Assembly: GCA_964455675.1 (NCBI GenBank)
Contig: CAYVYK010000009.1
Location: 1 to 64,000 of the forward strand
DNA length: 64,000 nt
Source of the DNA: an uncultured Methanosarcinales archaeon
GTDB taxonomy: Archaea > Nanobdellota > Nanobdellia > Woesearchaeales > CAYVYK01
Reading direction: 5' to 3'
Below, one piece after another: positions 27,590 through 40,949 of the stretch. Numbering within the stretch: the first letter of the stretch is position 1; each line of letters starts with the position of its first letter. The notes beneath the pieces are model-generated. The model was given only the letters and a program-made list of their open reading frames with translations. It searched no databases and had not been told where the DNA came from. The position numbers and the translations under genes are program-made.

Positions 27590-30391
27590 ATGAAAAACAT
27601 TCTCATCAAGGGAGCACGCGAGCACAACCTCAAAAATATCAACCTCGAGCTACCCAGGGATAAGTTCATCGTGATCACGGGGCTTTCTGGAAGCGGAAAG
27701 TCAACCCTTGCGTTTGACACGCTATACGCCGAGGGGCAGCGAAGATACGTGGAATCCCTTTCCTCTTACGCGAGGCAATTCCTCGGGCTCATGAATAAGC
27801 CAGATGTGGACTCGATCGAAGGGCTCTCACCAGCAATAAGCATCGAACAGAAGACAACAAGCAAGAATCCGAGAAGCACCGTCGGGACGATCACAGAAAT
27901 CTATGACTATCTCCGGCTGCTCTTCGCCAGAATCGGAGTGCCATCATGCCCAGATCACAACATCCTCATCGAAGCCCAAACGCCAGAAAGGATAGCGGAA
28001 CGCATCTCGCAAGCAGCGCGAGGAAAAGTCATGATCCTCTCACCAATCATCCGGCAGAAGAAAGGAACGTACGAACAGCTCCTCAAAGACCTCGAGAGCG
28101 AAGGGTACACAAAAGTCCGCGTGAATGGAAAAATCCAACGGACTGACGAAAAACTCACGCTCGAGCGTTACAAGAAACACGACATTGACCTTCTCATCGA
28201 CACCATCGAACCCAAAGATAAATCAAGGATGGTCGAGGCGATCGAGAACGCGCTAAAAAAAGGCGAAGGACTCCTTATCACCGTCGATGCGCAAGGCAAG
28301 GAAACGCTCTACTCCTCGAAGATGGCATGCCCCACGTGCGGCCTCGTATTCGAGGAGCTCCAACCAAGGATGTTCTCATTCAACAGTCCATTTGGCGCGT
28401 GCGAAACATGCCATGGCCTTGGCATCAAAATGGATTTTGACCCTGACCTCATCATCCCTGACAAAAACAAAAGCATCGCGGATGGAGCCGTCGCCATGTA
28501 CCGAAACGCTGTGGACGGATGGAGAGGACAGTACCTTGCTGCAGTCGCAAAACACCACGGATTCTCGGCGCTCACGCCGATCAACGAACTCTCAAAAAAA
28601 CAGCTCAATGTCCTCCTCTTTGGCAGCGAAGAACGAATGAAGTTCACAATGGTCATGAAGCAGGGCGAAGCAAACTGGTCACACACCGGAACATGGGAAG
28701 GACTCATCCCACAAGCAATGAGGCTCTACCAGCAGACGGAATCAGATTACAGGCGAGAAGAGCTCGAAAAGTTCATGCGATCAACACCATGCCCCACCTG
28801 CAGCGGAGCACGGCTCAAGAAAAAAGTGCTCGCCGTAAGAATCAACGGAAAGAACATCATCGAAATCACGGACATGAGCATCAAAGAATGCGGCGCATTC
28901 TTCAACGACATCACGCTCACAAGCAAGGAAACAGAAATCGCAAAGCAAGTCCTCAAGGAAATCCGAGCGCGCATCAGCTTCCTTTCCGAAGTTGGCCTTG
29001 GGTACATCACGATCTCGAGGAATGCAGGAACGCTCTCGGGCGGAGAACTCCAAAGGATACGGCTCGCCACACAGATCGGAAGCAACCTCACAGGAGTCCT
29101 CTACATCCTTGACGAACCAAGCATAGGCCTACACCAGCGCGACAATGCCAAACTCATCCGCACATTGCATAACCTGCGCGACATGGGAAACACGCTCATC
29201 GTCGTCGAACACGACGAAGATACCATCCGGAACGCGGATTACATCGTAGACATGGGACCTGGAGCCGGAATCCACGGCGGGCACATTGTGGCTGTCGGAA
29301 CACCTTCCGCAATCGAGAAAAACACCAAATCACTCACGGGAAAGTACCTCGCGAAAAAACTTGCGATCGAAACACCAACCACTCGACGAACAAGCAAGGC
29401 GTTCCTACGCATGTACGGATGCAGGGAAAACAACCTCAAAGATCTTCATGTTAATGTACCGCTCGGATGCCTCGTCGGAATCACGGGGGTTTCCGGCAGC
29501 GGAAAATCAACGCTCATCCACGAAATCCTCTACAAAGGACTCATGCGCACATTGCACGAGAGCAGGGACGTGCCGGGCGCGCATGACAAGATCACGAGCG
29601 ATCGTCCGGTGGACAAAGTCATCGTCATCGACCAATCACCTATCGGAAAAACACCAAGAAGCAACCCAGCCACCTACACGAAAGTGTTTGACGAAATACG
29701 CGCAGTATTTGCAAAAACACAGGAAGCGCGCACACGAGGGTACAAACCAGGACGGTTCTCATTCAACATTGAAGGAGGACGATGCGAGGCGTGCCAAGGG
29801 GACGGCGTCATCAAGATCGAAATGAACTTTCTTCCCGACGTCTTCGTGGAATGCGAAGAATGCAAGGGCAAGCGATACAACGCGGAAACACTCGACATCA
29901 AGTACAAGGGGCATTCCATCGCGGATTATCTTGCCATGAGTGTTCTGGAAGCCGCGCAGCAGCTGTCCGCAATACCAGCCATACGGGACAAGCTTTCGGT
30001 CCTTTCCGACGTAGGACTAGAGTACATCAAACTTGGACAGAGCAGCACGACACTATCCGGAGGAGAAGCGCAGCGGATCAAGCTCACAAGAGAGCTTTCG
30101 AAACGCGCGACCGGAAACACTGTCATATTGCTCGACGAGCCAACAACGGGCCTCCACTTCCACGACGTCAAGAAACTCATCGCAGTACTCCAGAGCCTCG
30201 TGGAACGAGGAAATACGGTCATCGTCATTGAACATAACCTTGACGTCATAAAAAGCTGCGATCATCTCATCGACCTTGGACCCGAAGGAGGCGATGAGGG
30301 CGGCAGAATCGTTGCCGAAGGAACACCTGAAGCAGTCGCCCAAAATCCACGAAGCTACACGGGACAATTCCTGAAGAACGTGCTCACATGA
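27590..30391 (+). CDS. uvrA: Excinuclease ABC subunit A
   Basis: GAREHNLKNI, GLSGSGKSTLAFDTLYAEGQRRYVESLS, two ABC domains, Zn fingers. Confidence 0.99.
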   Translation: MKNILIKGAREHNLKNINLELPRDKFIVITGLSGSGKSTLAFDTLYAEGQRRYVESLSSYARQFLGLMNKPDVDSIEGLSPAISIEQKTTSKNPRSTVGTITEIYDYLRLLFARIGVPSCPDHNILIEAQTPERIAERISQAARGKVMILSPIIRQKKGTYEQLLKDLESEGYTKVRVNGKIQRTDEKLTLERYKKHDIDLLIDTIEPKDKSRMVEAIENALKKGEGLLITVDAQGKETLYSSKMACPTCGLVFEELQPRMFSFNSPFGACETCHGLGIKMDFDPDLIIPDKNKSIADGAVAMYRNAVDGWRGQYLAAVAKHHGFSALTPINELSKKQLNVLLFGSEERMKFTMVMKQGEANWSHTGTWEGLIPQAMRLYQQTESDYRREELEKFMRSTPCPTCSGARLKKKVLAVRINGKNIIEITDMSIKECGAFFNDITLTSKETEIAKQVLKEIRARISFLSEVGLGYITISRNAGTLSGGELQRIRLATQIGSNLTGVLYILDEPSIGLHQRDNAKLIRTLHNLRDMGNTLIVVEHDEDTIRNADYIVDMGPGAGIHGGHIVAVGTPSAIEKNTKSLTGKYLAKKLAIETPTTRRTSKAFLRMYGCRENNLKDLHVNVPLGCLVGITGVSGSGKSTLIHEILYKGLMRTLHESRDVPGAHDKITSDRPVDKVIVIDQSPIGKTPRSNPATYTKVFDEIRAVFAKTQEARTRGYKPGRFSFNIEGGRCEACQGDGVIKIEMNFLPDVFVECEECKGKRYNAETLDIKYKGHSIADYLAMSVLEAAQQLSAIPAIRDKLSVLSDVGLEYIKLGQSSTTLSGGEAQRIKLTRELSKRATGNTVILLDEPTTGLHFHDVKKLIAVLQSLVERGNTVIVIEHNLDVIKSCDHLIDLGPEGGDEGGRIVAEGTPEAVAQNPRSYTGQFLKNVLT

Positions 30392-31923
30392 GAACAGATC
30401 ACTTGCCAGAAAGCCCGGGATGCTATCTTTACAAGGATGACAAGGGCGATATCATCTACATCGGGAAAGCCATCAACATCCGAAAACGCGTCAAAAGCTA
30501 TTTCTCGAAGGAACAGGACCCCAAAACGACAGCGCTTATCAGCCACGCAATGCGAGTCGATTTTGTTGTGACACGCAACGAACTTGAAGCATTTCTCCTT
30601 GAGAATAACCTCATCAAGCAGCACCAACCGAAATACAACATCGATCTCAAGGACTCAAAACGATACGCGCACCTCTCAATCACCAAAGAACCTTATCCAC
30701 GGCTCCTCATCGCCCGTGATCGACAAGGAGAACTCTTTGGCCCATTCGTCAGCGCAGAGGAGCGCGACTACGTCCGGGACATCGTCATCAGAACATTCCG
30801 CATCAGAACATGCAAAACACTTCCCAAACACGTATGCCTGCGCTATCATCTCGGGCTCTGCACAGGACCATGCGAAGGAAAGGTGACAAAAGAAGAGTAC
30901 CTGCAGCAGATGGAGGGAGCACGCAAGGTATTACACGGCAAGACGGAAGAACTCCTGCACAACCTCGAGAGGAACATGAAAGAAGCATCCAAGAGGGAGG
31001 AGTTCGAAAAAGCAATTGAAAGCCGGAACACGATACAAGCGCTTACAACCCTGGCGGAACGCCAAACGGTCGAGCGGAACAAACGATATGATGAGCATAT
31101 CATCAACTACGCAATCAAGGACGGAACGGTGTACCTTGTCGTCTTCCTCGTCAAGCGCGGAATCCTTGCGGAGAAGAGGGAATACAGCTTCGCGTTCCAT
31201 GATGATTTCCTCGAAGAATTCATCGTACAATACTACGGCGAGAGCGAACCACCAAGAGAACTGATCATTCCAGAAGCAGTAGGATCAGGAGTCGCAGAAT
31301 ACCTCTCAAAAAAAAGAGGGGGAAACGTGAGCATCACGATCCCTTCGCACGGCGACAAATACGAACTCCTCACGCTTGCACAGAAGAACCTGGAAGCGGC
31401 GTTCTTTGCCGCGGACGACAAGATGGCCGACCTCATGGCGGCACTACATCTTCCGGACATGCCACGAGATATCGAATGCTTTGACATCAGCCACCTATCG
31501 GGAACAGCAATGGTCGGAAGCATGGTGCGGTTCCATAACGGCATCACAGACAAACAAAACTACCGCAGATTCAAGATAAAAACAATCGATAAGGTCGATG
31601 ACTATGCGGCAATCGCTGAGATCGTCGGGAGAAGGTACCGAAGGCTCAAAAATGAAGGACAAAAGATGCCAGACCTAGTCATCATCGACGGAGGGAAAGG
31701 ACAGCTCCGCGCAGCGCTTGACGCCATGACGCGAATCGGCGTTAAACTACCAGTTATCTCCCTTGCGAAACGCGAAGAAGAAGTGTTCGTCCCAGGCATG
31801 AGCATGGCGCTACCCATTCCCAAAGGACGAGCATTGCGATTCCTCCAAGAAATACGAGACGAGGCGCACCGGTTTGCAATCGCATACCATCACACCTTGC
31901 GAAAAAAAGAGGTACGCAAATGA
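30388..31923 (+). CDS. uvrC: Excinuclease ABC subunit C (no C-terminal HhH)
   Basis: GIY-YIG (PGCYL...IYIGKA), IECFDISH, DGGKGQ, RDEAHRFA. Confidence 0.97.
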   Translation: MRTDHLPESPGCYLYKDDKGDIIYIGKAINIRKRVKSYFSKEQDPKTTALISHAMRVDFVVTRNELEAFLLENNLIKQHQPKYNIDLKDSKRYAHLSITKEPYPRLLIARDRQGELFGPFVSAEERDYVRDIVIRTFRIRTCKTLPKHVCLRYHLGLCTGPCEGKVTKEEYLQQMEGARKVLHGKTEELLHNLERNMKEASKREEFEKAIESRNTIQALTTLAERQTVERNKRYDEHIINYAIKDGTVYLVVFLVKRGILAEKREYSFAFHDDFLEEFIVQYYGESEPPRELIIPEAVGSGVAEYLSKKRGGNVSITIPSHGDKYELLTLAQKNLEAAFFAADDKMADLMAALHLPDMPRDIECFDISHLSGTAMVGSMVRFHNGITDKQNYRRFKIKTIDKVDDYAAIAEIVGRRYRRLKNEGQKMPDLVIIDGGKGQLRAALDAMTRIGVKLPVISLAKREEEVFVPGMSMALPIPKGRALRFLQEIRDEAHRFAIAYHHTLRKKEVRK

Positions 31924-33857
31924 AACCTGCAAAGCATGCATTCAAGATCAGAGCACCATTCTCACCGAAAGGAAGCCAGCCTGATGCTATCTCAAAGCTC
32001 GCAAAGGGCATTACAAGCATGAAATGCCAAACACTTCTTGGAGTCACAGGATCAGGAAAGACATTCACGATGGCGCACGTCATCGCGAAAGCGCAAATGC
32101 CAACACTCGTGATCGCACACAACAAAACACTCGCGGCGCAACTCTACGCTGAATTCAAAGAATTCTTCCCGGACAACCGCGTGGAATACTTCATCTCGTA
32201 CTATGACTACTACCAGCCGGAAAGCTACATCCCGCAGAGAGACATGTACATCGAAAAAGACGCACAAATCAATCCCAAAATCGAACAGCTGCGCCTCGCG
32301 GCAACCGCAAGCCTCATGACTAGGCCGGATACGATCATCGTCGCGAGCGTCTCCTGCATCTATGGTCTTGGAAATCCCGAGAACTTCCAGAATCTTGGAT
32401 TTGAGCTACGCTCTGGACAGAACATCAAACGGGAAGAAATCCTCCATAGGCTCATCAACATCCAATATGAACGGAATGACATGGAGCTTCTTCCTGGACG
32501 GTTCCGAGCGCGAGGAGGAACGATCGACATCGTCCCAGGATACTACAACAACATCATGCGAATCGAAACCGAGGATGATGTCATTTCCCGAATAGCGGAA
32601 GTTGATCGAATCACAGGAAGAACGATTGAGACGCACCCGTACTTCTTTGTATATCCCGCACGGCACTTCGTTGTACGAACAGAGGACGTTGAGCGCGCCC
32701 TTTCCACGATCCAAGAGGAGCTTACCAATCGGCTACCACAGCTCGGCGCGCTCGAAGCTCACCGGCTCAAGCAAAGGACAACATACGACATCGAGATGAT
32801 CCGGGAAACAGGCACGTGCAAGGGAATCGAAAACTACTCACGGCACTTTGACTTCCGAAAGGAAGGAGAACGCCCCTACTGCCTGCTTGACTACTTCCCT
32901 AAAGAATTCCTCCTCATCATCGACGAAAGCCACCAGACGATCCCACAACTGCACGCGATGCATCAGGGGGATTACACACGAAAGAAAACACTCGTCGATT
33001 ATGGATTCCGACTTCCAAGCGCAATGGACAACCGACCGCTCATGTACAAAGAATTCGAGAAATTCATGAAGCATGTGGTGTTTGTCAGCGCAACACCCGG
33101 AGAGTACGAGCGCAAGAAGAGCGACAGCATCGTGGAACAGATCATCAGGCCGACGGGTCTCGTCGATCCACCTGTGGACGTCCGCGGCACAACAGGACAG
33201 ATGGACGATGCCATGCGGGAGATACGAACAGCAGTAGCGCGAGGCGAACGAGCACTTCTTACGACACTCACTAAAAAACTCGCCGAAGAACTATCAGACT
33301 ACCTCGCCGAGCACGGAATAAAAACACGGTACCTCCATAGCGAAATCGAAACGCTTGAAAGAACCGAGATCATCAGGGAACTGCGCCTTGGAAAATTCGA
33401 CGTGCTTGTCGGCATCAACCTGCTCCGGGAAGGCCTCGACATCCCAGAAATCGGATTCATCGGAATCCTTGACGCTGACAAGGAAGGATTTCTCCGCGAC
33501 GCAAAAAGCCTCATCCAGATCATCGGAAGGGCGGCGCGCAACGCGAACTCAAGAGTCGTCCTCTATGCAGACACGATGACAGACTCGATGAAAACTGCAA
33601 TTCACGAAACACAGCGCAGGCGCGAACTCCAGATCGCATACAACAAAACACACAAGATCATCCCTAAAACCATCGTGAAGCCCATCAAGGAAAAAGAAGT
33701 CGACATCAAGGACACAAAGCACATACCGAAACCTGAGATACCAAATGTTATCATATCGCTTGAAGCAGAGATGCAAGCAGCGGCGGACGAACTCAATTTC
33801 GAGCGTGCGATCGCGCTGCGAGAACAGATCAAGCAGCTACGGGAAAGAATTGCTTGA
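31920..33857 (+). CDS. uvrB: Excinuclease ABC subunit B
   Basis: LGVTGSGKTFT, YYDYYQPE, DESH, GINLLREGLD, C-terminal UVR coiled coil. Confidence 0.99.
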   Translation: MKPAKHAFKIRAPFSPKGSQPDAISKLAKGITSMKCQTLLGVTGSGKTFTMAHVIAKAQMPTLVIAHNKTLAAQLYAEFKEFFPDNRVEYFISYYDYYQPESYIPQRDMYIEKDAQINPKIEQLRLAATASLMTRPDTIIVASVSCIYGLGNPENFQNLGFELRSGQNIKREEILHRLINIQYERNDMELLPGRFRARGGTIDIVPGYYNNIMRIETEDDVISRIAEVDRITGRTIETHPYFFVYPARHFVVRTEDVERALSTIQEELTNRLPQLGALEAHRLKQRTTYDIEMIRETGTCKGIENYSRHFDFRKEGERPYCLLDYFPKEFLLIIDESHQTIPQLHAMHQGDYTRKKTLVDYGFRLPSAMDNRPLMYKEFEKFMKHVVFVSATPGEYERKKSDSIVEQIIRPTGLVDPPVDVRGTTGQMDDAMREIRTAVARGERALLTTLTKKLAEELSDYLAEHGIKTRYLHSEIETLERTEIIRELRLGKFDVLVGINLLREGLDIPEIGFIGILDADKEGFLRDAKSLIQIIGRAARNANSRVVLYADTMTDSMKTAIHETQRRRELQIAYNKTHKIIPKTIVKPIKEKEVDIKDTKHIPKPEIPNVIISLEAEMQAAADELNFERAIALREQIKQLRERIA

Positions 33858-33917: not shown

Positions 33918-34640
33918 ATGAAGGGAATCCTCTTTATGATTAGTGCACTTGTTCTGCTCCTTGCGGCATGCGAACCGACTGTAACTTCGTTTGAAGAATG
34001 CGTTGCCGCAGGAAATCCTGTCATGGAAAGCTATCCCTTGCAATGCCGAGCAAACGGCCAGACATTCGTCGAAACAGTCAAGGAAACCCCATTATTTACC
34101 CAGTGCCCACAGAACCAGCAACAAGCGTGCACCCGTGAGTATAACCCCGTCTGCGCGATCCTTGATAACGGAATACGCTGCGTGACCGCGCCGTGCGCGA
34201 GCACGAACGCAGTTACGGACGGAAATGCCTGCATGGCATGCGCGAACAACGCGCAAGGATATTATCAAGGAGCGTGCGACTCGCAAACATTCGTCGTATG
34301 CGGCGAAACAGTCACCGGATTTGACCCGAGGGAATATGCAGCGCAGAGCAACGGAATCTGCGTTGACATTTGCCCAGGAAATTTTGACCCGTACATGACA
34401 CAGATCGGAGTTGAGGTCTGCATCGAGCACTACGGCGTCCAAGAAATTTCCTCATGGCAGACGTGCGATCGGTCAACGGACACGTGCGAATGCGTCAAAG
34501 CGTACGAGACTACCACCGAAGAGCCAATACCTGACGCACAGTACCGGTGCGTACCACCGCAGTACGCCATGCGGCTGCTCTTCCGGTCCGGACAAGACAG
34601 ACTTGACGAGAACGGCGAACCTTCTGTTGCCATCGCTTAA
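33918..34640 (+). CDS. Cys-rich lipoprotein with Kazal-like module
   Basis: Lipobox LAAC; SFEECVAAGNPVMESYPLQC; ACTREYNPVC...GNACMAC. Confidence 0.8.
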   Translation: MKGILFMISALVLLLAACEPTVTSFEECVAAGNPVMESYPLQCRANGQTFVETVKETPLFTQCPQNQQQACTREYNPVCAILDNGIRCVTAPCASTNAVTDGNACMACANNAQGYYQGACDSQTFVVCGETVTGFDPREYAAQSNGICVDICPGNFDPYMTQIGVEVCIEHYGVQEISSWQTCDRSTDTCECVKAYETTTEEPIPDAQYRCVPPQYAMRLLFRSGQDRLDENGEPSVAIA

Positions 34641-34724
34641 GCGCGAGGTTTCACAAAGACGCATTTCTGTATCCAGCAGTTTTATAAAGAAGGTATTCCA
34701 GGTACATGTGCAGGGGGTAGATCC

Positions 34725-36053
34725 ATGAACCGAGGAATAACTGTCCTAATCATTCTCATTACAACGACATTCTTATCTGGATGCAGCCTTGTAGGAACAA
34801 TGGAAAAAACAGGGTGCAGACTTCTCCCTGACGGAAACACGAAAGACCACTGCTGGCAGGATGCGGCAGTACGGCTCTCGATGCCAAGCGTCTGCTACTT
34901 CATCAAAGGACACAAGTTCGGGATTGTGGACAACAGCCCGCCCATGACAAAATGCTTCCTACGCATCGCGGAAAAGGAACGCGACCCCTTCATCTGCAGC
35001 AAGATCGTTGAAGGACATCCGAACGGATACACACAATCCGACTGCTACATGGCAACGGCGCTTGCCGCGAAGAACACCGCGTACTGCGACTTCATCACAA
35101 GGAACGAGAGCCGCGGATTTGGAATACAGATAACAAGTGTGGAGGAATGCTACCGGCAAGTCGGAAACAGACCAAGGTATTGCGAGGGAGATCCAAATCC
35201 AGCCACATGCCTCTCATCCACTGCGATCACGATGCTCGACGTCACGATCTGCGAAGATGCGGGTGATACAAAAACACAGCAACTCTGCCTCATGAACGCA
35301 ATCGAAGGCATCCAGCAAAGCATGATAGCTGGAAAAACAGGGGAATGGAATGCTCAGCAGTGCAGGGGATTCAACGATCCCAACCTCAAATACACATGCT
35401 CACTCTTTGCCGCAGCGGCTGGACAAACAAACGCATGCGACAACATCCTTGAGACACAATACCACGAGCTCTGCACGCTCCTCATCGGATACAGCCAGGG
35501 ACTACCAAGCGAATACAAGGAAGAAGTCAAGCAAAAAGCGGTGGACGAATGCAACACATTCACAATTGAACCATTCAAAGCTGCGTGCCTCATCTCATTC
35601 GGCCATGAGATTGAACTTACCGCAAGCAACATCGGCGACGACGCGACACGCGACGCCATGAACAAGGACGCCGTGGAATTCTACATCAAGGGATGTGACA
35701 TGCTCGGCACTCAGGACATGCCACCCGAAGCAGGATTCATCTGTATCATGCTCCCGAGCGGCATCATGCAATCACCATACTGCACCGCGTATGATGATGA
35801 GCGAACACGCGACCTCTGCCATGAACTTGACGCGATGCAGACAGGAGACTGCTCAAAGATCAAGGATGCAGAGATCAAAGGAGACTGCAAGGAAGGAGCA
35901 CTCGCGTACTACAAAGCAATGCAGAAGAAGTGCGGCAAGCTCTCAGGCGAGCCCTATAAGGAATGCCAAGAAACATTCAAAGCAGGATTCTTCATGCAGG
36001 GCCTAGGAGTCCGCATGCCCGAGACACTGAAGAAATTCATGGACGGAAAGTAA
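34725..36053 (+). CDS. Cys-rich repeat lipoprotein
   Basis: Lipobox LSGC; repeated C..I......C units. Confidence 0.8.
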   Translation: MNRGITVLIILITTTFLSGCSLVGTMEKTGCRLLPDGNTKDHCWQDAAVRLSMPSVCYFIKGHKFGIVDNSPPMTKCFLRIAEKERDPFICSKIVEGHPNGYTQSDCYMATALAAKNTAYCDFITRNESRGFGIQITSVEECYRQVGNRPRYCEGDPNPATCLSSTAITMLDVTICEDAGDTKTQQLCLMNAIEGIQQSMIAGKTGEWNAQQCRGFNDPNLKYTCSLFAAAAGQTNACDNILETQYHELCTLLIGYSQGLPSEYKEEVKQKAVDECNTFTIEPFKAACLISFGHEIELTASNIGDDATRDAMNKDAVEFYIKGCDMLGTQDMPPEAGFICIMLPSGIMQSPYCTAYDDERTRDLCHELDAMQTGDCSKIKDAEIKGDCKEGALAYYKAMQKKCGKLSGEPYKECQETFKAGFFMQGLGVRMPETLKKFMDGK

Positions 36054-36070: not shown

Positions 36071-36328
36071 CTATTTCTTTTTCCAGAAAGATTTCCAGAC
36101 GCGCGAGCCCTGATCACCCATATTCACCGCTCCTTCCTTCACGCGCTTGAGCAACTTTCTTGCCCACAAGAATTCCGTCGCAAGAATCGCAAGACCAATC
36201 GGGATAACGACAATTGCTGGGCCAGGAAGAACGATGAGCGCAATGCCAAGCGCCAGAACAGTAAAACCGATAACAATGATGATAATGCGGCGCGCCTGCC
36301 GATACGTCGTGATATGCCAGCTGACCAT
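36071..36328 (-). CDS. PGPGW-family small membrane protein
   Basis: LIVLPGPAIVVIPIGLAILATEFLWARKL. Confidence 0.85.
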   Translation of the reverse strand: MVSWHITTYRQARRIIIIVIGFTVLALGIALIVLPGPAIVVIPIGLAILATEFLWARKLLKRVKEGAVNMGDQGSRVWKSFWKKK

Positions 36329-36382
36329 ATACATATGCGCATGACGGATGTATTTAAACGCTTTGTTTACGACAGTTTGCTG

Positions 36383-36507
36383 ACTCAACATTTTTACGGC
36401 CTGGCAATAAGCCCTGTTCGCAAAAGGATTCTGCATACCACTCACCATTTTCAATACGGCCTGACGGCAAGCCCTGTCCGCTCCTCTCAACGATCGACGG
36501 ACAGGGC
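36383..36507. repeat. Two direct repeats at 60-bp period plus a perfect 10-bp stem
   Basis: tacggcctggcaataagccctgttcgc (36395) and tacggcctgacggcaagccctgtccgc (36455); gccctgtccg/cggacagggc. Confidence 0.65.
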
Positions 36508-36712: not shown

Positions 36713-37165
36713 ATGGCACTCATAGGAGTATGGGGTAGTTCTGTCAACAGGAGACTCATGCTGTTTGCGGCACGGCACCGGCCATCGCTCATCATCGACT
36801 GCGCAAACGCGGCAAACCCCCACGCGCTCTTCCCGGAAGTACCGATGGAAGCGCTGCATGACATCTACGTCGTGGAGCTCGAACTCCTGTACAAATTCCG
36901 GGACGTGCTCAAGAAAGCACCGGACATTGTCGGAAGCATCGGAGCAAAATGCGTTGCGATCACAACATTCGAAGGATTGTTTCATTACCGGGATGAAGAG
37001 GAAAACTACAACATCCACGAGCACGCGTGGGAACTCATGAGGGAACTTTCACAGCACGCGCCCGTGCTTGTCGGGATTACGCCGAAACAGAAGCACTTTG
37101 CGCTGCGGTACTGCGACAAGATTATTGGCGATATTGCTCGGAAACCAGTTATGCCTATACGTTGA
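36713..37165 (+). CDS. Degenerate RadA/RecA-fold protein associated with PolB2 (ImuA-like)
   Basis: LIIDCANAANPH...IYVVELELLYKF resembles the RecA-like core; no intact Walker A; upstream of PolB2. Confidence 0.6.
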   Translation: MALIGVWGSSVNRRLMLFAARHRPSLIIDCANAANPHALFPEVPMEALHDIYVVELELLYKFRDVLKKAPDIVGSIGAKCVAITTFEGLFHYRDEEENYNIHEHAWELMRELSQHAPVLVGITPKQKHFALRYCDKIIGDIARKPVMPIR

Positions 37166-37186
37166 TGGCAGCTTTTCGAGCGTTTG

Positions 37187-37331
37187 TCCATCATCGGACT
37201 CCCACCTTGGCACTGGCAGATAAAGGATCGTTTACAGTTACATTTCCATCATAGGCCTCCACCCTTGGCGATCAGCACATTATGTCAAATTGCCTAGTTT
37301 AACCATTCCATCATTGGCTTCCCTCCATGGC
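37187..37331. repeat. Three degenerate 25-bp direct repeats with 33- and 37-bp unique spacers (CRISPR-like geometry, no cas genes)
   Basis: tccatcatcggactcccaccttggc (37187), tccatcataggcctccacccttggc (37245), tccatcattggcttccctccatggc (37307). Confidence 0.7.
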
Positions 37332-37497
37332 GGGCTACGGACTCGCTACGCGAGTCCTACTCCGCCGGCCAGAACCCCACACGTTGTATGGGAACCTGGC
37401 CAGCTCCGTCGCCGCCAGGGAGGCCTTGCTGTGGGGAGGCAGGCTAGCGTCAGGAAGGCTTTGCTGTTGATGAATTACTAATGTTGGGGAACTTACT

Positions 37498-37800
37498 ATG
37501 GGACACACGGTATGGAGCCAGCGCATCGCAACTGACGTCATCATCGCGGAGCTCAAAGCGTACGGAAAATCGCTGAGGGAGGAAGATCGTGAGATTTACG
37601 AACGGCTGCTCAAGCTGCCACTCAAACGCGTGGGAAGCATCTCGTATGCGAGCAGCATCCACGTGTGGGCATTCCTCTTGCTGTCGGCAATGCTTGAGCA
37701 GGAGAAAAGGATCATGAGAATGGAGGCGGAGATTGAAAGGCTGGCTCATGGACGCATATCGGAAGGGGAACTCGATCACTCTATGGTTGAAGACGCCTGA
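37498..37800 (+). CDS. Small helical PolB2-associated protein (arCOG07300-like)
   Basis: MGHTVWSQR...YGKSLREEDREIYERL...LLSAMLEQEK, directly upstream of PolB2. Confidence 0.75.
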   Translation: MGHTVWSQRIATDVIIAELKAYGKSLREEDREIYERLLKLPLKRVGSISYASSIHVWAFLLLSAMLEQEKRIMRMEAEIERLAHGRISEGELDHSMVEDA

Positions 37801-40321
37801 GGAAGACTTCACGATCACGAAAGAATTCCGCGCGCGCATCTATCTCGACCCCGAGGGAGAAGGGTACCTGCGCAGGCGCGGAATCCCTTACCAAAGGGTA
37901 CAACGCCAGACGTATCTTCGCACGACGCGAGACGTGCTTGAAGTGGAAGCGCCGATCGCGGGATTCGAGCACTTCGTTTCGCAGATCGAGCAAGGAACAA
38001 AGCACCGCGTAGGGCTCTTCAATGCAGACATCAAACCAGAACAGATGTACTTGTATGCTTCAGACCTGCGACCATGCGGCGCAGTTGAGGTTGAGGATGA
38101 GCACATCATTATGCTTCCCGAAGAGCATCCTGTGCAGCTTGTCACGCTTCGACTGAAGGTAATCGTGCACGGGGATCCGCGCAGAAAACAGGACAAACCC
38201 ATCACCAAGATCTTCATGAATGATGCTGTGCTCGAAGGAGAGGAACATCACGTTCTTGAGGAATTCTCGCGCAAATTCCGACAGATTGATCCTGACATTA
38301 TCGTGATGGACTATGGATACTCACGACTGCCATATCTCGCCGATCGGCTTGAGAAGCATGGCATCAGTTGCCCACTGCATCGGTGGGATGATGCGCCGAT
38401 CACGTACCGCGGCGGGAGATCGTACTGGACGTACGGACAAGTACGCTATCAGGATTATGCAGTGCGGCTGCACGGCAGATTTTTGCTGGATACGTCAACA
38501 TTTGTGGGAACAGAATGCGACGTTGATGCGGTTGCAGAACTTGCGTACATGTCAGGAACACTGTTCCAGCAAACAGCATCACGAAGCTTTGGCGCGGCGT
38601 TCCAAACAGCGCTCGTACGGGAAATGATACGCAGAGGATACCTCGTACCCTATAAGGAAAAGCCCCTTGAAAAACCCCTGAGCATGTTTGAGATGCTCAA
38701 GTGCGACCGGGCAGGACACACGATGGACCCGAAAGTAGGGTTTCATCGCGACGTCGCCGAAATCGACTTCACGAGCATGTACCCATGGCTCATCTACAAC
38801 CACAACATCAGCGCGGACAGCATCCTCTCAACGCAGGGGCCGTTCTCTGAAGTTCCGGATGTGCCAATCAGCACGACGCTCCAGTTCAAAGGACTCATCC
38901 CTGCAGTGCTGAAGCCATTCATCGAGCGACGCATGTACTACAAAGCACACCCAACGGCCGTTAACAAGCAACGCGCGCAAGGACTCAAATGGCTGCTCGT
39001 GTCATGCTATGGGTATCTACGCTTCCGGGAATTCAAACTCGGAATACCAACAAGCCATATGGCAATATGCGCGTACGCACGAGAAACAATCCTTCGCGTT
39101 GTAAAACTCGCGGAAGAGCGAGGGTACGAGGTCGTGCACGCCATCATCGACTCCGCATATATCAAGAAGAAGAATATCACAGAAGCGGAAGTAAAAGAAT
39201 TCTGCAAAGAAGTTGAAATGGTCACTGGAATACCGATGTCGTTCGAAGGTGTATTCAAGTGGGCAGTTTTCTTGCCAAGCATTGTTGACAAGGACAGGCC
39301 GCTCCCCACAAGCTACTACGGAGCATTCCGAAGTGGGGAAGTAAAAGCGCGAGGCATCGAGGTGCGGCAGCGCAGCACGCCGCTTGTTGTTAAGCACTTC
39401 CAGCAGCATGTGCTCGAAGAGATGGCAAAGTGCTCGACAAAAGAAGAGATCAAAGCACTGATCCCGGAACTTCTCAAGAAACTCCGAGAAACAATTGAAG
39501 CGATTCCACAGATGGATCACCGGCTGCTTGTCGTGAACATGCGCGTGTCAAAAACGGAATACACACATACGACACCGCAAAAGCGCATTGTGGAACGGCT
39601 CAAGCAAAATGGCATACAGGTTGTTGCTGGGCAGTTTATTCACTTCATTTATGGGCGACGAGGAGCAGTATTGCCTGAAGAATACAACGGCAAGCCGGAC
39701 ATTGCACATTACCGGAAACTCCTTGTCAGATCGCTGTTCACAATATTGCAGCCGTTCGGATACACCAGGCAGGATATCGAGGATGGAGCAGAGATCGAAC
39801 GGCAGACAACACTAGGCGATTTCCTGCTCGTCAAGCATGTGTATGTGCAGATGCGAAAGGAGTATGAGGAACGAAGCGGGCTTTCGGAACGACTGATTCG
39901 ACAGAAACTTGAATCAGAAGGATGGCACGTCTGGAGGAGCGACATGATGAACGTGTTCCGGAACGGAGTGGTGATGTACCCGAATGTACAGCGCAAGTAC
40001 GCACGACTCCTCATGGTTCTCTCGCAGACACACGCAGAGAAGATCGAGGAACTCCAGTACATCAACGCCGTGCATCACGGTCTACCAGATTTCATCTGCC
40101 ACCGCGATGGGGATGTGAAGTTCGTGGAATGCAAACTCCAGTACGAACAATTAAGCAAAGTACAGAAGGCATGCATCGACCGACTGCGAGGAATGGGATT
40201 TCTTGTGGAAGTGCATAAACTCGTGGACCACCGCACACACATCGTGACCGCTGACGTTGATGTTCGCACAAAACGGAAATATGTCTCGGAAGCGCAGCTC
40301 AAGATTGCACAGGCTGTATAA
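37733..40321 (+). CDS. polB2: Family B DNA polymerase of PolB2 type fused to a C-terminal VRR-NUC (PD-(D/E)xK) nuclease
   Basis: Motif A IDFTSMYP, motif B KWLLVSCYGY, motif C HAIIDS, KARGIEVR; C-terminal GLPDFIC...FVECK...LSKVQ...IDRLRGMGFLVEV. Confidence 0.9.
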   Translation: MKGWLMDAYRKGNSITLWLKTPEEDFTITKEFRARIYLDPEGEGYLRRRGIPYQRVQRQTYLRTTRDVLEVEAPIAGFEHFVSQIEQGTKHRVGLFNADIKPEQMYLYASDLRPCGAVEVEDEHIIMLPEEHPVQLVTLRLKVIVHGDPRRKQDKPITKIFMNDAVLEGEEHHVLEEFSRKFRQIDPDIIVMDYGYSRLPYLADRLEKHGISCPLHRWDDAPITYRGGRSYWTYGQVRYQDYAVRLHGRFLLDTSTFVGTECDVDAVAELAYMSGTLFQQTASRSFGAAFQTALVREMIRRGYLVPYKEKPLEKPLSMFEMLKCDRAGHTMDPKVGFHRDVAEIDFTSMYPWLIYNHNISADSILSTQGPFSEVPDVPISTTLQFKGLIPAVLKPFIERRMYYKAHPTAVNKQRAQGLKWLLVSCYGYLRFREFKLGIPTSHMAICAYARETILRVVKLAEERGYEVVHAIIDSAYIKKKNITEAEVKEFCKEVEMVTGIPMSFEGVFKWAVFLPSIVDKDRPLPTSYYGAFRSGEVKARGIEVRQRSTPLVVKHFQQHVLEEMAKCSTKEEIKALIPELLKKLRETIEAIPQMDHRLLVVNMRVSKTEYTHTTPQKRIVERLKQNGIQVVAGQFIHFIYGRRGAVLPEEYNGKPDIAHYRKLLVRSLFTILQPFGYTRQDIEDGAEIERQTTLGDFLLVKHVYVQMRKEYEERSGLSERLIRQKLESEGWHVWRSDMMNVFRNGVVMYPNVQRKYARLLMVLSQTHAEKIEELQYINAVHHGLPDFICHRDGDVKFVECKLQYEQLSKVQKACIDRLRGMGFLVEVHKLVDHRTHIVTADVDVRTKRKYVSEAQLKIAQAV

Positions 40322-40949
40322 CTTCCAAGGTATTATGCTGCGGAGAGTTAACAAGATCGGAAACTTTGTAGGTATGGAGCAGGCCTGGGAAAGGCTTGAG
40401 GAACTTTAAGGCTTCTTTCGGATTGCTTTTGAGATAGGCTTCTTCACTCTTACGTTCAAGTATGACGGGCATGCGGTCGTGAATCGGCTTCATGACTGCG
40501 TTTGGGCTTGTTGTAATGATAGAACAGCTCACAATATTCCTGCCGTCCTTTTCCCAGAGGTCATAGATGCCAGCGAAGGCAAACAAGCCATCTTTCAATG
40601 TGATGCGGAAGGGGATTTTTTTCGCACCGACACGCTTCCACTCATAAAATCCGTCGGCGAGGATGAGGCAACGCTGGCTTGCGAATGGGCGCTTGAATGC
40701 TGGCTTTTCGGCAATGGTTTCCGCGCGAGCGTTAATGAGGCGAGCGCCGATCTTGGCGTCCTTTGCCCAGTGAGGGATCAAGCCCCATTTCGCCATGACA
40801 ATCTCGTTTGGATGATCTTGTGTGATGATGGCAGTCTCTTGCGTCGGAGCGATGTTATAGCTTTGCTTGATCGCAGGAACTGCATCGACGTGAAAACGCT
40901 CCCTTAAGAGCTCTTTCTCGACCATTGTCAGGGAGAAACGGCCGCACAT
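40299..40949 (-). CDS. SOS response-associated peptidase (SRAP/HMCES/YedK family)
   Basis: MCGRF, YNIAPTQ, WGLIPHW, INARAET, GFYEW, IHDRMPVIL, VNS. Confidence 0.96.
   Translation of the reverse strand: MCGRFSLTMVEKELLRERFHVDAVPAIKQSYNIAPTQETAIITQDHPNEIVMAKWGLIPHWAKDAKIGARLINARAETIAEKPAFKRPFASQRCLILADGFYEWKRVGAKKIPFRITLKDGLFAFAGIYDLWEKDGRNIVSCSIITTSPNAVMKPIHDRMPVILERKSEEAYLKSNPKEALKFLKPFPGLLHTYKVSDLVNSPQHNTLEVIQPVQS

Follow-up and report, generated by a model that had tools for sequence, protein, structure and literature searches.

A PolB2 mutasome operon whose polymerase continues in frame into a PIP-type motif and a FAN1-like VRR-NUC nuclease

The stretch of DNA considered here (the window, 64,000 nucleotides) contains a B-family polymerase gene whose reading frame runs on into a nuclease-like tail, which raises the question of what a damage-tolerance polymerase might do with a nuclease in the same polypeptide. 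The present analysis identifies the locus as a PolB2 "mutasome" operon from a DPANN archaeon of the Woesearchaeota type, in which a translesion PolB2 without proofreading continues in frame into a PIP-type motif and a FAN1-like VRR-NUC domain. The features of the locus, in window positions, are as follows.

27590-30391, + strand: uvrA, context 3 kb upstream
30388-31923, + strand: uvrC, context 3 kb upstream
31920-33857, + strand: uvrB, context 3 kb upstream
36713..37165, + strand: iRadA-like gene, 150 aa; RecA/Rad51 fold without the P-loop Lys/Thr, Walker B Asp position changed
37166..37497, no strand: spacer of 332 nt between the iRadA-like gene and PPB2
37498..37800, + strand: PPB2 (arCOG07300-type small helical subunit), 100 aa, N-terminus MGHTVWSQR
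37733..40321, + strand: PolB2-PIP-VRR-NUC fusion gene, 862 aa, single uninterrupted frame
37733..39802, + strand: PolB2 polymerase module, residues 1-690; palm, fingers and thumb after a decayed exonuclease region
38765..38788, + strand: polymerase motif A, DFTSMYPW, D345 invariant
38987..39016, + strand: polymerase motif B, KWLLVSCYGY, K419 invariant
39137..39154, + strand: polymerase motif C, HAIIDS (residues 469-474); Ile for the first Asp, second Asp (D473) invariant
39803..39826, + strand: QTTLGDFL, a PIP-like clamp-binding motif at residues 691-698, lying between the thumb and the nuclease
39830..40318, + strand: FAN1-like VRR-NUC nuclease module (residues 700-862), from the Pfam VRR_NUC match over cut-off, the model and the invariant residues
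39887-39889, + strand: catalytic residue E719, invariant in 55 fused proteins
40088-40090, + strand: catalytic residue D786, invariant in the same 55
40127-40135, + strand: catalytic residues E799 and K801, invariant in the same 55
40163-40165, + strand: catalytic residue Q811, invariant in the same 55
40299..40949, - strand: SRAP gene, 216 aa, N-terminal MCGRF; Pfam SRAP E 3e-71, convergent

The fusion gene and its polymerase module

The preliminary description of this DNA listed a RadA-like gene, a small helical gene, a PolB gene and an SRAP gene, and all four reading frames lie as placed there. The 862-residue PolB with its in-frame tail of about 160 residues is likewise borne out, the frame being free of stops from its TTG start, which overlaps PPB2 by 68 nt as it also does in the related locus L002. 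The Pfam profiles of both domains match the protein: DNA_pol_B at residues 291-641 (E 1e-13) and VRR_NUC at residues 759-827 (E 5.5e-8; score 33.3 bits, cut-off 23.8). For the exonuclease domain, the score of 17.9 bits (E 0.0022) stays under the cut-off of 23. The motifs quoted earlier are all present, namely HAIIDS, GLPDF (783-787), FVECK (797-801) and LSKVQ (807-811).

The polymerase module matches NCBIfam NF004416 with an E of 8.4e-98, under that model's cut-off, and archaeal PolB structures align with residues 268-683 (E 1e-28); there, DYGYS-RLPYL is the counterpart of NGDSFDLPYL, the Exo II sequence of Deep Vent polymerase. Across 55 fused proteins, whose identity to that of the window is 41-59%, D345, K419 and D473 do not vary. 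Motif C had been described as altered, but IID is the norm in PolB2 and is also found in the S. islandicus enzyme (PMC11791011). Since targeted mutagenesis in S. islandicus requires PolB2, formerly thought to be catalytically inactive (PMC11791011), the IID sequence is no argument for inactivity. No Y-family polymerase (PF00817) was found in the window's genome, which is 99% complete, and this points to a need for a translesion enzyme.

The nuclease tail and the clamp-binding motif

Judged by its residues, the tail is a VRR-NUC domain with a complete E-PD-ExK-Q active site, in agreement with the initial assignment. In 18 shorter, mostly stand-alone proteins, D786, E799, K801 and Q811 are also invariant and E719 is at least 90% conserved; given such conservation in fused and shorter proteins, an inactivated site is not expected. 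When the tail profile was compared with the PDB, 11 sequences were found at E <= 5e-5, all of them FAN1 (best 2.1e-6), and the one other entry at E <= 10 is an unrelated protein (E 2.3). The predicted structure (pLDDT 91.7) gives the same answer: the top match is human FAN1 (VIA Z 10.0, 128 residues aligned), with P. aeruginosa FAN1 at Z 9.7. FAN1 chains overall align over 120-134 residues at Z 9.3-10.0, compared with 81-85 residues for minimal VRR-NUC domains (4qbn, Z 7.9, 85 residues), and Hjc chains give Z 5.5-6.5. The model places helices between strands 1 and 2, the site of an insertion in FAN1 that is proposed to block the dimer interface (PMC4103454). The tail is thus predicted to be FAN1-like, with the helical insertion, rather than a minimal VRR-NUC, a distinction that the preliminary description had overlooked. 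FAN1 is described as a 5' flap endonuclease; the VRR-NUC proteins that stand alone in bacteria and phages resolve Holliday junctions as dimers (PMC4103454). The window's genome also encodes FEN1, Hef/ERCC4 and Hjc, so there is no absent flap or junction nuclease for the tail to replace.

A predicted clamp-binding motif between the two modules had also gone unnoticed. The linker carries the pattern Q-x-x-[LIMV]-x-x-[FYW] in 55 of 57 fused proteins. Of 53 unfused PolB2, 37 have it among their final 60 residues, and of 38 stand-alone nucleases, 29 have it at the N-terminus. In a predicted complex with PCNA, the interface is formed by residues 687-697 and 699, with scores of 0.80, 0.81 and 0.75 against 0.00 for the best control, a result that shows likeness to solved PIP-PCNA complexes and not binding. 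The partner pLDDT is at least 74 and the contact agreement at least 91%; the pass mark is attained by 116 of 157 solved complexes and by 2 of 215 mismatched pairs, and the prediction may pass through resemblance to the solved complexes. The sister clade of the window's protein consists of 11 unfused proteins, four with bacterial names; where the clamp motif would be, seven of them have strings such as QLELSF and QYELDF, which resemble the bacterial beta-clamp motif QLxLF.

Neighbouring genes and spread of the fusion

The 150-residue protein encoded first in the cassette has no Pfam match, but its AlphaFold model (pLDDT 90.3) has the RecA/Rad51 fold, so the label "degenerate RadA-like" is correct. 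Among the 43 Foldseek matches listed (ranks 1-50), all are RecA/Rad51/DMC1/RadA, Rad51-paralog (Psy3-Csm2, BCDX2/CX3) or KaiC chains, the best being DMC1 (4hyy, E 1.2e-6, TMq 0.73). The loop after strand 1 reads WGSSVN in place of the GSGKT of RadA, and ITTF falls at the Walker B position in a weak hhalign alignment (prob 12%, E 0.0024). The spacer that follows contains three 27-nt direct repeats (37186, 37244, 37306) and two 20-nt repeats (37413, 37448). Its repeat pattern is confined to it genome-wide (3 forward, 0 reverse, control 0), its sequence occurs once in the genome, and no Rfam family matches it. In loci L002 and L003, unlike the window, the iRadA-like gene and PPB2 abut.

In both of these fused loci, and in 11 of the 17 fused loci from the scan of species genomes, the gene immediately before PolB2 is a PPB2 orthologue with the N-terminus seen in the window, which is in line with the conserved N-terminal "MGRT" motif reported for PPB2 (PMC11791011). 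The published table likewise has PPB2 as the gene just before a PolB2 for which the residues printed agree with the L002 protein (PMC11791011). The SRAP gene, as noted earlier, converges on the polymerase, overlapping the 3' end of the fusion gene by 23 nt. SRAP is found within 4 kb in 5 of the 17 fused loci of other species and also in L002, and none was found beside 38 stand-alone nuclease genes; the association of SRAP with polB2 is genuine, though previously published (PMC11791011). The uvrA-uvrC-uvrB genes 3 kb upstream of the cassette had been overlooked before.

The fusion is common among Woesearchaeota/Nanoarchaeota metagenome genomes. The tail motif is present in 65 of 120 listed homologue clusters, 58 of them full-length fused, and of 64 loci in genomes of other species, 17 have the same continuous frame. 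Among 401 genomes of the order, 16 carry the fusion, five more have polB2 and the nuclease as separate adjacent genes, and in one they are 1.3 kb apart. PolB2 occurs in 48 of these genomes, the tail in 55 and both in 32, against about 6.6 expected by chance, a figure to be read with the relatedness of the genomes in mind, as they are not independent. The association is not obligatory: 16 of the 48 PolB2 genomes showed no tail, and 23 of the 55 tail genomes showed no PolB2 at E <= 1e-45. In G021 and G004, which are more distant, polB2 and the nuclease gene overlap at the 3' end of the former. The fused state requires at least eight changes on the PolB2 tree, which indicates that the nuclease has often been lost or split off.

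At the junction, the contigs of two runs show 0 differences and 0 indels across 39400-40400, with no stop or frameshift; the runs belong to one study and may be the very sample from which the window was assembled, so they are not independent support.

The cassette is the iRadA-PPB2-PolB2 "mutasome" already published (PMC11791011), with the same gene order, which confirms its reading as a PolB2 operon; the nuclease tail is the new part. Neither "VRR" nor "nuclease" occurs in the main text of that paper; in its supplements, "nuclease" and "PF08774" are likewise absent, and the single "VRR" is a peptide string. Its table does list close relatives of the window's polymerase as PolB2, one of them matching the L002 protein in its printed residues. 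Our literature search found no paper describing a PolB2-VRR-NUC fusion, which is apparently widespread yet undescribed. As to whether it is a common annotated architecture, precomputed Pfam matches for both domains are already attached to the fused proteins in the database listing; however, their source names are those of polymerases or, once, "VRR-NUC domain-containing protein", and none of the names listed covers both domains.

Proposed role and comparison with known systems

The explanation that we favor, at roughly even odds, is that the fusion protein serves damage tolerance as a polymerase-nuclease tethered to PCNA. Once DNA is damaged, the complex would be loaded on PCNA via the internal motif, PolB2 would then extend a 3' end opposite or beyond the lesion, and the tethered FAN1-like nuclease would remove what lies in front, either a 5' flap or the 5' end of that strand. 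Gap filling across the damage would in this way give a ligatable nick, i.e., a nick-translation-like patch, and the same pass could excise an adduct or crosslink from the downstream strand. The neighbouring SRAP would shield abasic sites in single-stranded DNA, and the upstream UvrABC could supply incisions. As the separate nuclease gene has its own N-terminal clamp motif, the fusion would hard-wire a partnership also able to run in trans on PCNA.

The preliminary description had instead suggested that one polypeptide could cut and then extend at lesions. In such a scheme, nicking of the damaged strand by the nuclease, close to a lesion or at a stalled structure, would provide the 3'-OH that PolB2 extends, an action in the style of alternative excision repair that differs from the above only in the order of events. 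Nuclease and polymerase, both with intact active sites, do share one polypeptide, and the nearby SRAP and UvrABC point to lesion processing. We consider this order unlikely, since the nearest structural matches are FAN1 chains determined in complex with 5' flap or nicked DNA (PDB titles), FAN1 enzymes act on existing strand ends and not as lesion-recognizing nickases, and Pfam shows no damage-recognition domain in the fusion protein. Somewhat less probable still is a junction resolvase or dimerization module, i.e., a dimer that cleaves Holliday junctions or reversed forks and pairs two mutasomes. The dimeric four-way-junction resolvases among stand-alone VRR-NUC domains (PMC4103454) and the Hjc matches would fit such a role, but the FAN1 matches are better and longer, the helical insertion sits where that of FAN1 is proposed to block the dimer interface (PMC4103454), and the genome already has its own Hjc. 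A non-catalytic tail that only binds DNA or the clamp is very improbable in view of the conservation of all five catalytic residues, even though many nuclease folds are reused as binding modules and the polymerase works without the tail in unfused relatives. A frameshift or misassembly joining two genes, of the kind that the separate adjacent genes of some relatives might bring to mind, is in our view ruled out by the recurrence of the fused frame across genomes and the base-for-base agreement of the contigs, which may come from the window's own source sample.

The proposed PCNA-tethered polymerase-nuclease has purely functional analogies in better-known systems. In bacterial DNA polymerase I, the polymerase is coupled with a 5' nuclease that removes the strand in front of it, and in eukaryotic crosslink repair the FAN1 nuclease is followed by the B-family translesion polymerase Pol zeta; the nuclease folds and polymerase families of DNA polymerase I are unrelated to those of the fusion, and FAN1 and Pol zeta are separate proteins. 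The ImuA-ImuB-ImuC (DnaE2) mutasome, with which the preliminary description drew its analogy, resembles the PolB2 cassette in combining a RecA-like accessory protein with an error-prone polymerase in damage tolerance. It uses the C-family DnaE2 and the Y-family-like ImuB, i.e., another polymerase family than PolB2, and to our knowledge it has no fused nuclease and is not homologous to the PolB2 mutasome as a cassette.

With the FAN1 nuclease domain (human and P. aeruginosa; PDB 4ri8, 5y7q and others), its best profile and structure match, the tail shares the E-PD-ExK-Q site and, between strands 1 and 2, the helical insertion. FAN1, too, acts together with PCNA, and the structure of PCNA-activated FAN1 has been solved (PDB titles 9eoa, 9cl7; PMC12078661). 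The tail is not a FAN1 orthologue, however: it is fused to a polymerase, it has 163 residues where the aligned part of FAN1 spans about 233, and Pfam finds no SAP, TPR or UBZ domain in the fusion protein. The stand-alone bacterial and phage enzymes psNUC, stNUC and saNUC belong to the same Pfam family, and their catalytic residues, the conserved Gln among them, are those of the tail (Pennell et al. 2014, PMC4103454). Such proteins match the tail model less well (Z 4.8-7.9), the tail having an extra N-terminal strand, the helical insertion and two extra C-terminal strands.

The closest system remains the PolB2 (Dpo2) mutasome of PolB2, a PPB2 trimer and iRadA (Timinskas, Timinskas & Venclovas 2025, PMC11791011), which has in common with the window the motif C IID, the decayed exonuclease region, the N-terminal MG-x-T of PPB2, a nearby SRAP and a clamp-binding motif after the thumb. 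The table of that paper files relatives of the window's polymerase as "partial operon - no iRadA" or "only PolB2", without a clamp motif. The filter applied there kept only motifs at most 30 residues from the C-terminus and would miss that of the window, which is internal; and, unlike in those entries, the upstream gene of the window folds as RecA/Rad51. What sets the window's PolB2 apart from the published mutasome is some 165 extra C-terminal residues, which form the nuclease.

The cassette and its genomic setting

The cassette occupies 36713–40949, and a uvr set lies 3 kb upstream of it. The open reading frames are as follows.

27590–30391, + strand, uvrA
30388–31923, + strand, uvrC
31920–33857, + strand, uvrB
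36713–37165, + strand, iRadA-like ORF, 150 aa
37498–37800, + strand, PPB2 ORF, 100 aa
37733–40321, + strand, fusion ORF, 862 aa, TTG start, 68-nt overlap with the PPB2 gene
40299–40949, − strand, SRAP ORF, 216 aa, converging on the fusion gene with a 23-nt overlap

The published operon order is iRadA–PPB2–PolB2 (Timinskas, Timinskas and Venclovas, 2025, PMC11791011), and the cassette, with PPB2 and iRadA alongside the polymerase gene, is this PolB2 mutasome operon. The preliminary description had read a polymerase and a VRR-NUC nuclease in one frame, with a convergent SRAP gene. The single frame is confirmed by the 862-aa ORF, which contains both Pfam domains, and the motifs quoted for it are found as HAIIDS (residues 469–474), GLPDF (783–787), FVECK (797–801), and LSKVQ (807–811). 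The SRAP assignment also stands, the 216-aa protein matching PF02586 across the whole model (E 3e-71) and starting with MCGRF, so that the catalytic Cys2 is present. SRAP is reported to be enriched near polB2 (PMC11791011).

The 100-aa product corresponds to PPB2 (arCOG07300) in its size, its N-terminal MG-x-T arm, and its position directly upstream of PolB2. It starts with MGHTVWSQR, as do the orthologues directly upstream of PolB2 at 13 fused loci; a conserved N-terminal "MGRT" arm is described for PPB2, and the published table places PPB2 upstream of a PolB2 of the type found at L002, a fused locus of a relative (PMC11791011).

The 150-aa gene is identified as iRadA because its predicted fold is that of RecA/Rad51, homology not being established by sequence alone; the earlier reading of a degenerate RadA-like gene is thus borne out by the model. 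The protein has no Pfam hit and gave nothing useful with NCBIfam, and its profile retrieved no RecA-family chain from the PDB by sequence, the top match being named only "OT3". The hhalign alignment to RadA is weak (probability 12%, E 0.0024), with the register that would be expected, in which WGSSVN is matched to the P-loop GSGKT, IDCAN to IDTEN, and ITTF to the strand of Walker B. A protein atlas pointed to a cluster, 28% of whose members carry Rad51 (score 0.90), which we treat as a lead only. In the AlphaFold model (pLDDT 90.3), the protein is predicted to adopt the RecA/Rad51 core fold without the N-terminal helical domain, and all 43 Foldseek rows found among ranks 1–50 are RecA, Rad51, DMC1, RadA, Rad51-paralog, or KaiC chains (E 1.2e-6 to 3.3e-5; best DMC1 4hyy, E 1.2e-6, TMq 0.73). 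The loop after strand 1 reads WGSSVN instead of the GSGKT of RadA, and the P-loop Lys and Thr are therefore absent; ITTF is placed at the Walker B position by the weak hhalign alignment alone. The ATPase motifs thus appear to have been lost. The presence of iRadA in the window adds to the published work, whose table lists eight relatives as "partial operon - no iRadA" or "only PolB2" and whose census marks the clade as lacking iRadA (PMC11791011).

At two loci in other species (L015:1171–2016 and L040:1264–2019), iRadA and PPB2 form one frame with the MGHT motif internal, and iRadA–PPB2 fusions of the same kind are described in other lineages (PMC11791011). In the window, a 332-nt spacer (37166–37497) parts genes that abut in relatives. 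It contains three 27-nt direct repeats, spaced by 58 and 62 nt, and two 20-nt repeats, has no Rfam match and no second copy in the genome, and might represent an operator array or else the remains of an insertion.

The genome (1.72 Mb in 25 contigs, 99% complete, the window being contig 9) belongs to a DPANN archaeon, since the nearest source-named homologues of the fusion are labelled Woesearchaeota, Nanoarchaeota, or Nanoarchaeia. Elsewhere it encodes RadA, a RadB-like paralogue, PCNA, Hjc, FEN1, and a Hef-type ERCC4 protein. No domain of the Y-family polymerases (PF00817) came up when the genome was searched in six frames, 10 of 14 control genomes being positive, and PolB2 may therefore be the main bypass enzyme of the host. 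In a six-frame search, the tail of the fusion is the sole VRR_NUC match in the genome (31.3 bits).

The uvrA–uvrC–uvrB operon (27590–33857) of this DPANN archaeon is of the bacterial type. Between uvrB and the cassette (33918–36053) lie genes for two Cys-rich proteins (240 and 442 aa) that match no Pfam family and have N-termini resembling signal peptides, followed by a PGPGW membrane protein gene (36071–36490, − strand). A mobile-element origin of the cassette was considered and dropped, the base composition being even across the window and the flanks consisting of housekeeping and repair genes.

The polymerase and nuclease modules

The polymerase module is recognized by Pfam as DNA_pol_B at residues 291–641 (E 1e-13) and aligns with archaeal PolB structures across residues 268–683; the best NCBIfam model, NF004416 ("type B DNA-directed DNA polymerase", E 8.4e-98), is below its curated cut-off. 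The B-family palm, fingers, and thumb are present with the catalytic residues of motifs A, B, and C, and D345 (motif A), K419 (motif B), and D473 (motif C) are invariant in 55 aligned fused proteins, which are 41–59% identical to that of the window. In motif C (HAIIDS), the first Asp of DxD is replaced to give IID. Most PolB2 proteins lack this Asp, that of S. islandicus having IID as well, and PolB2, formerly thought to be catalytically inactive, is needed for targeted mutagenesis in S. islandicus (PMC11791011). The active site is conserved, and the module is probably a translesion-type polymerase. Its membership of the PolB2 clade is indicated indirectly: eight close relatives that share its sequence from motif B to motif C appear in the published PolB2 table, and the printed residues of one of them match the L002 protein (PMC11791011).

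The preliminary description had noted no recognizable exonuclease motifs, in agreement with the exonuclease Pfam domain scoring below its cut-off (17.9 bits versus 23, E 0.0022). When the fusion is aligned by HMMER, its DYGYS-RLPYL lies opposite NGDSFDLPYL, the Exo II stretch of a Pyrococcus-type polymerase, which places Arg or a gap at the Exo II Asp. The proofreading active site has probably been lost, a conclusion short of residue-by-residue proof because the Exo I region does not align with the archaeal PolB structures. The PolB2 exonuclease domain is described as decayed (PMC11791011).

The tail carries VRR_NUC (PF08774) at residues 759–827 (E 5.5e-8, 33.3 bits versus a cut-off of 23.8), and its E-PD-ExK-Q site is complete, with catalytic E719, D786, E799, and K801 and the family Gln, Q811, residues with roles described for VRR-NUC proteins (PMC4103454). 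The nuclease residues invariant in the 55 aligned proteins are E719, G783, P785, D786, E799, K801, E805, and Q811. A profile built from the tail and 18 shorter, mostly stand-alone homologues retrieves from the PDB 11 sequences at E <= 5e-5, all of them FAN1 (best E 2.1e-6), the single other row at E <= 10 being an unrelated protein (E 2.3); the GLPD, ExK, and conserved Gln of the tail align on those of FAN1.

The PD-(D/E)xK fold, which the preliminary description proposed to check by structure prediction, is present in the AlphaFold model of the tail (pLDDT 91.7, pTM 0.86) as a restriction-endonuclease-like α/β core. Numbered within the tail, strand 2–7 comes first, followed by helix 18–29 (bearing E719), strand 33–36, and helices 37–41 and 51–81; strands 88–92 (PD) and 95–103 (ExK) and helix 110–121 (Q811) come next, and strands 125–132, 138–143, and 150–155 come last. 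Foldseek returned no match at E <= 0.001 and ranked FAN1 first, weakly (E 7e-3, probability 1.00). VIA-align ranks the structural relatives more clearly. FAN1 scores highest, with Z 10.0 for the human enzyme (rmsd 2.7 Å over 128 aligned residues) and Z 9.7 for that of P. aeruginosa (130 residues); the minimal VRR-NUC proteins 4qbn (85 residues) and 4qbo (81 residues) reach Z 7.9 and 7.1, respectively, and Hjc reaches Z 6.5.

By both profile and model, the tail resembles the nuclease module of FAN1. The fusion protein is not a FAN1 orthologue, since the only Pfam domains above cut-off are DNA_pol_B and VRR_NUC, with no SAP or TPR domain (or the UBZ of animals). The tail family is small: among 1.84 billion representative proteins, its profile finds 380 at E <= 0.001, 87 at <= 1e-10, and 49 at <= 1e-30.

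Distribution of the fusion and the predicted clamp-binding motif

An assembly or frameshift artefact joining two genes is excluded for practical purposes. The preliminary description had called for read support at the junction, and over 39400–40400 the contigs of two runs are identical at every base, both runs coming from a single study and possibly being the source sample. The tail motif G-x-PD-[FLY]...[FVI]-E-x-K is found in 65 of the 120 best homologue clusters, and 58 of these 65 are full-length fused proteins in the tree, compared with 53 unfused proteins of at least 660 aa. To these counts can be added a search of 401 genomes, evenly sampled from the order, with each half of the fusion.

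Occurrence of the two halves of the fusion in 401 genomes
Genomes with the tail: 55
Genomes with PolB2 (E <= 1e-45): 48
Genomes with both halves: 32
Halves fused in a single frame: 16
Halves side by side on one strand, in separate frames: 5 (G004, G021, G161, G190, G267)
1.3 kb apart: 1 (G095)
Different contigs: 10 (PolB2 cut by the contig end in two)
PolB2 without detected tail: 16
Tail without detected PolB2: 23

Independence of the two halves would predict about 6.6 genomes with both, against the 32 observed, a comparison that is descriptive and carries no test because related genomes are not independent. In G021 and G004, the PolB2 proteins of which are only 32–34% identical to that of the window, the 3′ end of polB2 and the nuclease gene have 119 and 62 nt in common, respectively. 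In G161 (contig C44, 6164–8611), the PolB2 and tail matches lie 40 nt apart on one strand in open frames of 823 and 844 aa, which may represent a frameshifted or recently split fusion.

A scan with the tail profile, taking one genome per species, gave 64 loci: 17 full fusions, 1 fusion cut by a contig end, 38 stand-alone genes (no PolB2 within up to 4 kb, or less where the contig ends sooner), and 8 at contig ends, where the fused or stand-alone state is undecidable. The lineage labels are Woesearchaeota, Nanoarchaeota, Nanoarchaeia, or Nanobdellota, with one Undinarchaeales; many loci carry the catalogue label "uncultured Methanosarcinales", and two short contigs have bacterial labels. On a FastTree phylogeny of 111 PolB2 modules, rooted with two outgroup sequences only, the fused state changes 19 times, at least 8 of the changes being forced by well-supported branches, and the deepest branches are fused. 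The simplest reading of this tree would be repeated loss or fission from a linked ancestor.

Between the two modules, the post-thumb segment ERQTTLGDFL contains a PIP-like motif, QTTLGDFL (residues 691–698), which conforms to the PIP-box pattern Q-x-x-[LIM]-x-x-[FY]-[FYL]. Among 57 fused proteins, 55 have the search pattern Q-x-x-[LIMV]-x-x-[FYW] in the linker, and 37 of the 53 unfused PolB2 proteins have it no more than 60 residues from the C-terminus. Of the 38 stand-alone nuclease frames, 29 carry it immediately before the domain, typically as (M/V)RQ(S/T)TLLEF at the frame start. The 2025 census counted clamp motifs only within 30 residues of the C-terminus, and its table lists none for the fused proteins because this filter misses an internal motif (PMC11791011).

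The sister clade of the window PolB2 consists of 11 proteins (P0035–P0037, P0040, P0048, P0066, P0081, P0082, P0092, P0093, and P0111), all unfused and all within the 16 unfused proteins that lack the motif. Four are named Omnitrophica or Brocadia, and the other seven have no source name. In 7 of the 11, strings such as QLELSF, QLEFDY, and QYELDF stand where the archaeal motif would be. They resemble the β-clamp motif QLxLF reported for PolB2 proteins transferred to bacteria (PMC11791011), a switch as would be expected of a clamp-binding motif. This replacement suggests a transfer to bacteria instead of mis-binning.

Complexes were predicted for the PCNA of the genome, encoded on contig C1 at 185709–186452 (alignment of 14), with fusion residues 672–862 (alignment of 55). 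The scores were 0.80, 0.81, and 0.75, compared with 0.00 for the best control, with a partner pLDDT of at least 74 and a contact agreement between runs of at least 91%. Of 157 solved complexes, 116 attain this mark, as do 2 of 215 mismatched pairs, rates that hold only roughly because our own alignments were used. The confident interface joins partner residues 687–697 and 699 to PCNA residues 39, 42–46, 122, 124–127, 129, 240, and 242–247. The geometry is that of classical PIP–PCNA binding, and the pass may thus stem from likeness to solved complexes; the prediction supports PCNA binding by the fusion and does not show it.

The tail homologues that occur as stand-alone genes (150–256 aa; 38 loci between L013 and L071, e.g., L060:1014–1598 and L066:1713–2288) may constitute a small nuclease family, FAN1-like and tethered to the clamp. 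None of the neighbouring genes is shared by all 38 loci. An ATP-dependent DNA-ligase-like gene, named by sequence, lies 0.5–2.8 kb upstream at 8 of them, which looks like lineage synteny.

Proposed function and relation to known systems

On balance, we propose a complex riding on PCNA in which PolB2 would extend past a lesion and the nuclease, acting like FAN1 on flaps, would trim the 5′ flap or 5′ terminus of the strand in front. Bypass synthesis would thus leave a nick that can be ligated, and the same pass might also remove adducts or crosslinks from the downstream strand. We give this reading an even chance. Because the stand-alone nucleases possess their own N-terminal motif, the data suggest that the partnership can also run in trans on one PCNA ring, the fusion fixing it. 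Strict functional dependence is disfavoured both by the facultative nature of the link and by the presence of FEN1, Hef, and Hjc in the host.

An order in which incision precedes extension, as suggested in the preliminary description, would make use of the same two active sites, and the likeness to FAN1 on flaps fits clearance ahead of the polymerase better; we regard it as unlikely. A dimeric junction resolvase appears somewhat less probable still. Stand-alone bacterial and phage VRR-NUC proteins are indeed dimeric four-way-junction resolvases, while FAN1 is monomeric and flap-specific, a difference attributed to the dimer interface of FAN1 being covered by helices inserted between strands 1 and 2 (Pennell et al., 2014, PMC4103454). 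Like FAN1, the predicted tail has helices between strands 1 and 2 at the same position; unlike the helix-turn-helix insertion of FAN1, it shows one long helix. A non-catalytic appendage is very improbable beside the complete and invariant nuclease site.

The cassette, the IID motif, the SRAP association, and the clamp motifs in PolB2 are already published. As to whether the fusion is a common annotated architecture, both domains are already detected in databases, but no source name covers both: the listed fused proteins are named as polymerases or, in one case, "VRR-NUC domain-containing protein". No description of a PolB2–VRR-NUC fusion was found in the literature searched, which included few subscription journals and leaves absence from print unproven. 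The main text of the 2025 paper contains neither "VRR" nor "nuclease", and its supplements contain no "nuclease" or "PF08774" and one "VRR", a peptide string (PMC11791011). Helicase–pPolB and Bro-N–VRR-NUC fusions are described elsewhere, the PolB2–VRR-NUC fusion not being among those reported in that text (PMC12721341).

The PolB2 mutasome has been modelled only recently, and the natural fusion, together with its adjacent-gene form, would indicate which activity it needs, a FAN1-like structure-specific nuclease, and where the two meet, on PCNA. The published census, in which the clade lacks both iRadA and a clamp motif, is corrected, the stand-alone nucleases with an N-terminal clamp motif would form a new small archaeal family, and a single protein offers separable polymerase, PIP, and nuclease sites for direct experiment.

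A more far-reaching possibility, which we consider doubtful, is a self-contained "unhook-and-bypass" enzyme of these DPANN archaea, with a Pol-ζ-like B-family translesion polymerase and a FAN1-type nuclease combined in a single PCNA-tethered protein within the iRadA/PPB2 mutasome. In one loading event, such an enzyme would remove the damaged downstream strand by resection or unhooking and fill the resulting gap. Its targets would be crosslinks and abasic-site-derived adducts on the downstream strand. If this were true, the stand-alone PIP–VRR-NUC proteins would represent an unrecognized archaeal family of clamp-dependent FAN1-like repair nucleases and a prokaryotic counterpart, possibly a relative, of the eukaryotic FAN1 nuclease module.
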